Positions 60,087-60,271 of a stretch of 64,000 nt of DNA are shown piece by piece. Location: the NCBI RefSeq assembly GCF_003334405.1, contig NZ_QOWM01000002.1; one strand, given 5' to 3'. Below the pieces are notes generated by a model. That model was not told the DNA's origin and searched no databases. It saw only the letters and a program-made list of their open reading frames with translations. How positions within the stretch are numbered: the first letter of the stretch is position 1; each line of letters begins with the position of its first letter. The stretch is from Escherichia coli. GTDB lineage: Bacteria > Pseudomonadota > Gammaproteobacteria > Enterobacterales > Enterobacteriaceae. A program made the translations under genes and the position numbers.

Positions 60087-60110
60087 TCACTGATGATAAA
60101 CGCCAAATCA

Positions 60111-60209
60111 GCCTGATGCGCTACGCTTATCAGGCCTACAAGAGAATTGCAATATGTTGAATTTGCACGATTTTGTAGGCCGGATAAGGCGTTTACGCCG
60201 CATCCGGCA
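60111..60209. repeat. BIME: two REP (palindromic unit) sequences in inverted orientation
   Basis: GCCTGATGCGCTACGCTTATCAGGCCTACA and TGTAGGCCGGATAAGGCGTTTACGCCGCATCCGGCA match the canonical REP consensus. Confidence 0.9.
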
Positions 60210-60238
60210 TAAACAAAGCGCACTTTGTCAATAATCTG

Positions 60239-60268
60239 AAGCCCCGGCCATGTGCCGGGGTTTCTTTT
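60239..60268 (+). terminator. Rho-independent terminator (obgE transcript) next to dacB stop
   Basis: Hairpin CCCCGGCCATGTGCCGGGG followed by TTTCTTTTT. Confidence 0.65.
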
Positions 60269-60271
60269 TGA

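Follow-up and report, generated by a model that had tools for sequence, protein, structure and literature searches.

What fills the space between two convergent genes, and do the parts found there share one history? This question is raised by the spacer between obgE and dacB in the 64,000-nucleotide stretch of the Escherichia coli chromosome considered here (contig NZ_QOWM01000002.1; 'the window'). The spacer spans exactly 60087-60271 (185 bp), bounded by the obgE stop codon TAA (60084-60086, + strand) and the dacB stop codon TAG (60272-60274, - strand), and it contains two inverted repetitive extragenic palindromic (REP) sequences and a separate GC-rich hairpin. We propose that it is very probably best explained as an ancestral obgE terminator hairpin together with one complete bacterial interspersed mosaic element (BIME) of class BIME-1, known as REP243 or RIP243, situated between the obgE stop and the hairpin.

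A complete BIME-1 in the spacer

REP sequences of E. coli are of types y, z1 and z2 and have the tetranucleotide GTAG conserved on the 5' side of the hairpin foot, and a BIME-1 combines a single-copy z1 and y pair with a long, well-conserved L linker, often with a site for integration host factor (IHF) (PMC3333891). In the obgE-dacB spacer, the REP tail CTTATCMGGCCTAC matches without mismatch at 60126-60139 (+) and 60175-60188 (-); these are its only two matches in the window, on opposite strands and 36 nucleotides (nt) apart, where chance would provide 0.48 matches with up to two mismatches. An exact match to the REP head motif lies at 60196-60208 (-). The left-hand REP, GCCTGATGCGCTACGCTTATCAGGCCTAC (60111-60139, +), has the inverted (iREP) orientation, its CTAC at 60136-60139 reading GTAG on the minus strand, and the right-hand REP, GTAGGCCGGATAAGGCGTTTACGCCGCATCCGGC (60175-60208, +), opens with GTAG at 60175-60178 and matches consensus head and tail, both with no mismatch. 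Because this right-hand REP agrees at 31 of 32 positions with GTAGGACGGATAAGGCGTTTACGCCGCATCCG, the y REP crystallised as the TnpA-REP substrate (PMC3479197), we assign it to type y and the left-hand one to the z1 iREPs. Three paralogous BIME-1 copies have exactly the same z1 REP. Sequence features of a substrate of TnpA-REP, a REP-associated tyrosine transposase (RAYT), are found in both repeats: GTAG plus a bulge in the y REP, and GGCC/TAC at 60133-60139 (the slash marks the cut). Sites of the form (T)GCC/TGAT are found in z1 and z2 iREPs and not in y iREPs (PMC3333891); the second iREP cleavage site here, at 60110-60117, reads AGCC/TGAT, with the T at position -4 of TGCC/TGAT replaced. The tnpA-REP gene itself is not among the genes of the window.

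Inverted-repeat analysis recovered both REP hairpins, a pairing between the two REP tails (pair I2, 94% complementary) and a separate hairpin of 11 pairs at 60238-60264. The z1 hairpin has a folding energy of -13.2 kcal/mol on the plus strand (z ~ -4.6) and -11.5 kcal/mol on the minus strand, and its stem is interrupted by 1-2 nt, as an internal mismatch on the plus strand and a 2-nt bulge on the minus strand. The y hairpin reaches -20.9 kcal/mol (z ~ -4.7) with the fold (((((((..((((....))))..))))))), an AA/GC internal mismatch lying in its stem. Folding of the whole spacer stands out from shuffled sequence on either strand (z ~ -6.7), and in the fold of the whole unit, as RNA or single-stranded DNA, the two REPs pair with each other.

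The repeat unit exceeds the two REPs. An nhmmer profile built solely from three paralogous copies at other loci (mog-satP, entD-fepA and uvrB-yvcK) recovered 60089-60238 from the window with E = 1.8e-45; the same paralogs are 83-90% identical over positions 3-151 of a 151-bp query (60087-60237), that is 60089-60237, and the homology ends where the BIME-1 arms end. Paralog profile, paralog alignments and the end points of the length polymorphism described below together delimit a repeat of about 150 bp at 60089-60238 (+), its conserved arms included. From left to right it consists of a left arm, ACTGATGATAAACGCCAAATCA (60089-60110, +), present in all paralogs as (G)ACTGATGACAAACGCAAAAC; the z1 iREP; a 35-nt L linker (60140-60174) with a core, GCAATATrTTGAATTTGCACGATTTT, that is kept in the paralogs; the y REP; and a right arm, ATAAACAAAGCGCACTTTGTCAATAATCTG (60209-60238, +), present in all paralogs and in a decayed copy between gltD and gltF considered in the last section. 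The REP pair is thus a complete BIME-1, and what is mobile or varies is the entire element of about 150 bp, arms included, and not the REPs alone.

The exact consensus matches and the paralog-only profile rule out chance palindromes. Extragenic position, GTAG, imperfect palindromes of 20-40 nt, a type consensus and dispersed high copy number are all those of REPs, and the inverse z1 and y, the long conserved L linker and the single copy are those of a BIME-1; no direct repeats are found in 60060-60300, where the BIME-1 is present as one unit. The pair does not belong to BIME-2, which combines z2 and y, a short S linker and tandem copies, as its non-y REP is a short one of 29 nt, its linker is of the long L kind and it occurs singly. 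The sequence-only reading had described a 185-bp spacer filled by a BIME of two canonical REPs in opposite orientation plus a GC hairpin with a T-run abutting the dacB stop, and it proved correct on each of these points. Its proviso, that the REPs might fail to match the consensus on alignment, is answered by two REPs that match with no mismatch, and by linker and hairpins that align with other BIME-1 copies. We refine it here to a BIME-1 with arms and a hairpin with a separate history.

The element itself is already known. It appears as 'REP243, Convergent, 3330558-3330461, obgE, dacB' in a supplementary table of bioRxiv 10.64898/2026.03.23.713779, and the dacB-obgE intergenic element is named RIP243 in Supplementary Table 1 of PMC8407004; the K-12 RefSeq annotation displays no repeat features at the locus, and both names come from these supplementary tables. 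From window position 25114 rightwards, a K-12 coordinate is converted to a window position by subtracting it from 3,390,668, which places the REP243 entry at 60110-60207. RIP and RIB are other names for the BIME-1 elements of E. coli (Gilson 1991; Boccard & Prentki 1993; Bachellier 1994/1999, as cited in PMC3333891). Among complete E. coli genomes, the BIME-1 query has matches in 5426 of 5426, with a median of at least 39-40 places per genome among the matches listed; searched with a 39-nt linker probe, the genomes show a median of 13 matching places and a maximum of 30, and the ten listed genomes that are 100% identical have 19-22. As a catalogued copy of one of the best-known bacterial repeat families, for which IHF binding at this exact copy has already been published, the element taken by itself matters little.

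Comparison with related systems sharpens the assignment. With other BIME-1 elements the obgE-dacB copy shares the inverted z1 and y, GTAG boxes facing a 35-nt L linker, an IHF-like site, outer arms, single copy and a place at the 3' ends of transcription units. It differs from them in its linker, which has ATATGTTG instead of the usual ATATATTG, in AGCC instead of TGCC before the z1 REP, and in a hairpin A-tract changed to AAG; we regard these as trivial, copy-specific substitutions. The BIME-2 elements (REP325 in yjdM-yjdN, sucC-sucB, tldD-yhdP), which have been proposed as both terminators and stabilisers, likewise have y REPs, are extragenic and lie in a 3' untranslated context, but their y and z2 REPs, short variable linkers, tandem arrays and status as a preferred gyrase target do not apply here. 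The REPINs of Pseudomonas, REP doublets mobilised by RAYTs (Bertels & Rainey, PMC3116915), are also units of two inverted REPs and a spacer whose REPs pair in the fold and whose presence or absence concerns the whole unit; they belong, however, to another sequence family and host, the obgE-dacB copy is known from sequence polymorphism, and its empty allele is no simple excision product.

The hairpin and the history of the two parts

The hairpin to the right of the BIME-1 has the form GAAGCCCCGGC-CATGT-GCCGGGGTTTC followed by TTTTT (60238-60269, +), as located by terminator scan, fold energy and conservation. Its stem (60238-60248/60254-60264) has 11 pairs, 8 of them G-C, closing on the loop CATGT, and the TTTTT at 60265-60269 (+) ends 2 nt before the dacB stop codon. 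The energy is -21.7 kcal/mol on the plus strand (z = -5.7) and -18.3 kcal/mol on the minus strand, and the terminator scan gave a plus-strand tail of TTTTTGACTA. A GC-rich stem-loop, a U-run and a position downstream of a stop codon are all found on the plus strand. Because the T-run lies on the obgE strand, the hairpin would mainly be obgE's intrinsic terminator. On the dacB strand it starts 7 nt past the stop and its tail reads CUUCAGAUUAUU in K-12, UUUCAGAUUAUU in the other filled alleles (those with the BIME-1) and UUUUGCUGAUUA in the empty ones (those without it). The A-tract is A5-6, with T5-6 opposite, in Pseudescherichia, Citrobacter and Pseudocitrobacter, and in Escherichia it is A4 (empty), A3 (filled) or AAG (K-12); owing to this shortening the U-tract on the dacB side is poor. 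We therefore regard the hairpin as a predicted intrinsic terminator of obgE and at best a weak one of dacB.

Like bidirectional intrinsic terminators of convergent genes, the spacer has a single GC hairpin that lies between two stop codons and is flanked by an A-tract and, opposite it, a T-tract, and the likeness is clearest in the three other genera just named. It differs from them in the shorter Escherichia A-tract and the poor dacB-side U-tract, and in that the hairpin is known from sequence alone. A simple terminator scan proved unreliable as proof of bidirectionality in the outgroups, in which A and T tracts were counted into the stem.

The two parts of the spacer come apart when strains are compared. 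With a 385-bp query centred on the spacer, and coverage of at least 80% defining the filled allele, 1932 of the 5426 complete E. coli genomes carry the BIME-1 and 3494 (64%) fall below the line; every listed genome below it has a 39-40-bp spacer, and this is taken as the state of the rest. The empty allele is the hairpin alone, in a spacer of 39-40 bp reading TAATCAGCAAAACCCCGGCCATGTGCCGGGGTTTCTTTTTGAC, for example in O157:H7, LF82 and strain 104, in each of which the hairpin directly follows obgE. Filled and empty alleles differ in length by 146 bp, and the end points of this difference are the ends of the family-wide repeat unit.

When species-representative genomes were scanned with the obgE 3' end, E. 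albertii, E. whittamii and Escherichia sp. MOD1-EC7003 also proved to have the filled allele, and its right junction is the same. The obgE-dacB copies of these species and of E. coli share locus-specific variants (a linker start of AGAG.AT, and CAATAATCTGA), and because of this sharing the four are indicated to hold one old insertion in common; the shared variants and the same right junction rule out independent insertions in the different Escherichia species. The empty allele occurs also in Escherichia sp. E1V33 and in a genome recorded as E. coli SCPM-O-B-8794. Pseudescherichia vulneris and Pseudocitrobacter have the hairpin alone, with symmetric A5-6 and T5-6 tracts, and in Citrobacter youngae, Citrobacter sp. 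Cu233 and sp. NCU1 (loci L019, L021 and L033) the hairpin is joined, towards dacB, by a different kind of REP or REP-like hairpin. Since in Citrobacter a different REP stands beside the same hairpin, REPs would have entered the spacer on more than one occasion. If the unit is removed from the filled allele, TAATCA·AACCCC results, and the sequence observed is TAATCAGCAAAACCCC; the failure of this deletion to regenerate the empty sequence excludes seamless excision as its source and marks the empty allele as ancestral. A clean target-site duplication is rejected as well: TAATC stands at both ends, yet the flanks are irreconcilable with a simple duplication. As judged from these alignments, the hairpin is the ancestral part and the BIME-1 a later, strain-variable insertion. 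The comparison thus separates an old conserved terminator hairpin from an insertion that is missing in 64% of E. coli.

Exchange between the alleles is suggested by a second polymorphism. The T-run has two haplotypes that differ by two changes (TTTCTTTTT-GAC or TTTCTCTTTAGAC; window 60262-60271 and the orthologous sites in L002, L003, L006, L007 and L008), and these occur with the BIME-1 indel, 30 bp away, in all four combinations, which points to recombination between obgE-dacB alleles. One might go further and consider an old trans-species polymorphism, in which both alleles are kept or exchanged by recombination because they tune how transcripts end, antisense transcription and IHF binding around dacB and around obgE, the latter an essential GTPase gene; we find this unlikely. 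If it were true, a duplicated and compensated hairpin in E. whittamii would be a repair restoring a terminator close to obgE.

In E. whittamii (L030, 8225-8440) the order is hairpin-BIME-hairpin, a second copy of the terminator hairpin lying between the obgE stop and the BIME, and the extra copy differs from the right-hand one by a compensatory pair change (CCACGG/CCGTGG against CCCCGG/CCGGGG). None of the 5426 complete E. coli genomes has the two-hairpin junction. Only the presence-absence pattern across strains and species at this locus and the two-hairpin variant of E. whittamii are mildly new. The two alleles, 185 bp and 39 bp, form a natural pair for testing the effect of a BIME-1 on two convergent genes, one of them, obgE, essential.

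We also note that in the mog-satP paralog (L009, 366-400) the BIME-1 directly abuts a terminator-like hairpin (AAAAAAATCCCCCCAGGCGGGGGGATCAG/ACTGATG, the slash here marking the junction), a case which suggests that BIME-1 copies tend to adjoin terminators.

What the BIME-1 might do at this locus

Published data place IHF on the element and Rho just beyond it in the dacB direction. The linker holds an IHF consensus-like site, ATTCAACATATTG (60150-60162, -), which matches WATCAANNNNTTR with one mismatch (12/13). A GeF-seq IHF footprint at 3330459/3330469-3330549, recorded as 'Intergenic (dacB-obgE)', RIP243, and among the 'highest IHF-binding regions' (PMC8407004 Supplementary Table 1), maps to window 60119-60209 and encloses ATTCAACATATTG. 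An in vitro Rho-binding (rut) peak on the minus strand at 59943-60111 (K-12 3330557-3330725; rows P_R10_2784 and P_N10_3415, bioRxiv 10.64898/2026.03.23.713779) is on the dacB-sense strand, where it follows immediately after the z1 REP and is antisense to the 3' end of obgE, and is listed in the same source as overlapping a bicyclomycin-significant transcript at K-12 3330538-3331610 (window 59058-60130). A published table of transcription start sites also contains an antisense start at K-12 3331179 (+), window ~59489 (-), within obgE, and this start falls inside the bicyclomycin-significant region antisense to obgE. More generally, some 60% of the REPs of E. coli are located between convergent genes, 207 of the 704 convergent spacers contain a REP, and published work favours a context-dependent role of such REPs in terminating transcripts and blocking decay.

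From these elements one may assemble the following scenario. The hairpin at 60238-60264 with its U-run would end the rplU-rpmA-yhbE-obgE transcript, and might serve dacB as a weak terminator or a 3' stabiliser. Because this terminator lies 3' of the BIME-1, the latter would be transcribed as about 150 nt of obgE 3' untranslated region, in which the REP hairpins, also able to pair mutually, could only add a second barrier to 3' exonucleases. Transcripts of dacB that pass the hairpin would cross the y and z1 REPs, and Rho would then halt this read-through at the start of antisense obgE. The linker, as double-stranded DNA, would be bound and bent by IHF. The BIME-1 itself would be a non-autonomous repeat that probably arrived via the TnpA-REP route and that is dispensable.

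Some observations weigh against this scenario. The IHF consensus match is insignificant alone, with 72 matches in the window where 56 are expected, and the weight of the linker site comes from the published footprint, the sequence match by itself being at chance level. The strand of the bicyclomycin-significant transcript is absent from the published table. Genome-wide, terminal REPs are without effect on mRNA half-life. As for termination, the scan left the hairpin unflagged on the minus strand, in filled and empty alleles alike, and bidirectional termination would be suggested by the A-tract/T-tract symmetry in other genera; no mapped RNA 3' end for obgE or dacB at this locus was found in the published supplementary tables searched, and the terminator role is a predicted one. 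Finally, since 64% of E. coli genomes are without the BIME-1, any host function it has at the locus would have to be dispensable.

This last point leads to the closest rival, in which the BIME-1 is a neutral or selfish RAYT-dependent passenger in a tolerant site beside a terminator, the IHF and Rho effects being by-products. It overlaps our explanation and differs from it on selection alone, and we think it quite possible, falling just short of an even chance. The 3494 genomes without BIME-1 have both flanking genes intact, the BIME-1 between gltD and gltF, also in this window, has decayed until it is 64% identical to the obgE-dacB copy, the Citrobacter REP of a different kind on the other side of the same hairpin marks the spacer as a permissive landing site, and the lack of a genome-wide half-life effect of terminal REPs agrees with neutrality. 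A mere passenger, however, is harder to reconcile with GTAG boxes, stems and linker that are all intact and the same junctions retained in at least three other Escherichia species, with the rank of this copy among the strongest IHF-binding regions in vivo, and with the higher expression of convergent gene pairs that have a REP. Some host role might alternatively be sought in the REPs themselves, as working terminators or stabilisers for both genes of the kind proposed for REP325, which would render the GC hairpin secondary. REPs can serve as terminators, partly Rho-dependent ones, and can block decay; 78 REPs lie inside predicted bidirectional terminators, and the Rho-binding peak abuts the z1 REP. 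Yet it is the hairpin with its U-run that has the form of a textbook intrinsic terminator, and it stands free of REPs in the majority of E. coli as well as three other genera, whereas the REPs have no U-tract, and REP325 fragments with 2-4 hairpins were not Rho-dependent; we therefore consider terminator REPs improbable. Liang and Deutscher reportedly described, in 2015, a translational effect of a REP within 15 nt of a stop, which should not apply here, where the z1 REP starts 24 nt after the obgE stop.

Two further readings would make the spacer a gene. REP or linker sequence might encode a small RNA (sRNA) resembling naRNA4 or ES036/CssrF, on account of Rfam matches to naRNA4 (60178-60214, 40.5 bits) and to ES036/CssrF over the linker (60132-60174, - strand, 31.5 bits). 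Both, however, fall below the curated gathering scores (59.5 and 37.6 bits, respectively), which no Rfam family reaches in the spacer, and only reflect shared REP or linker sequence; a sequence scan also found no promoter-like site in 59700-60700, and an sRNA is very unlikely. Still less credible, to the point of being nearly negligible, is a small protein from the 46-amino-acid open reading frame at 60083-60223 (-). The frame is in the program-made list, and in a few genomes (H76, H88, H92) PGAP annotates BIME-1 copies with a 'hypothetical protein', but the frame has a GTG start with no ribosome-binding site seen, crosses a palindromic repeat found at many loci in either orientation and is wholly missing in 64% of strains; the PGAP entries are most likely an annotation artefact. 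We thus retain an ancestral hairpin with one inserted BIME-1 as the preferred account of the locus.

Other REP-like sequences and the surrounding window

The sequence-only reading had seen in this spacer the sole REP-containing one of the window. For intact REPs this stands, as searches with the consensus tail and head and with the profile found no other intact canonical REP in the 64 kb. It does not stand for degraded ones. The gltD-gltF spacer holds a decayed full-length BIME-1 at 29860-30011 (+), with nhmmer E = 6.5e-15 and 3.9e-12, in which arms, z1, linker and y are all recognisable. The relic is entered as REP51 (3360689-3360787) in the table of bioRxiv 10.64898/2026.03.23.713779, where a Rho-binding peak and a bicyclomycin-significant transcript of its own are given. 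Directly after the mlaB stop, at 53706-53749, lies CAGGCCGGATATGGCGTTAACCGCCTGTCCGGCA, a degenerate hairpin resembling a y-type REP; it lacks the GTAG box and matches the profile weakly (E ~1e-3). Exact head-motif matches at 55063-55075 (murA) and 36983-36995 (yhcC) were discarded as lying in coding sequence with no hairpin, and REP-motif matches at 11305, 40233 and 51775 likewise lie in coding sequence.

The window as a whole is the E. coli chromosome segment from tldD to ftsH and matches the reverse complement of K-12 MG1655 (~3,326,668-3,391,867) with 99.97-99.99% identity, the spacer and its surroundings being identical in sequence. The sole structural difference is the IS5 copy that splits yhcE in MG1655 and is missing from the window (~25114-25117); its absence makes the source a K-12-like strain other than MG1655, and it is from this site that the coordinate conversion used above holds. 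The genes flanking the spacer are obgE (58914-60086, +; 390 amino acids, ObgE, K-12 b3183) and dacB (60272-61705, -; 477 amino acids, DacB/PBP4, K-12 b3182). Elsewhere in the window, Rfam matches above the gathering score identify the greA leader at 61736-61857 (+; 127.5 bits) and the ArcZ sRNA at 39984-40091 (-; 120.8 bits).

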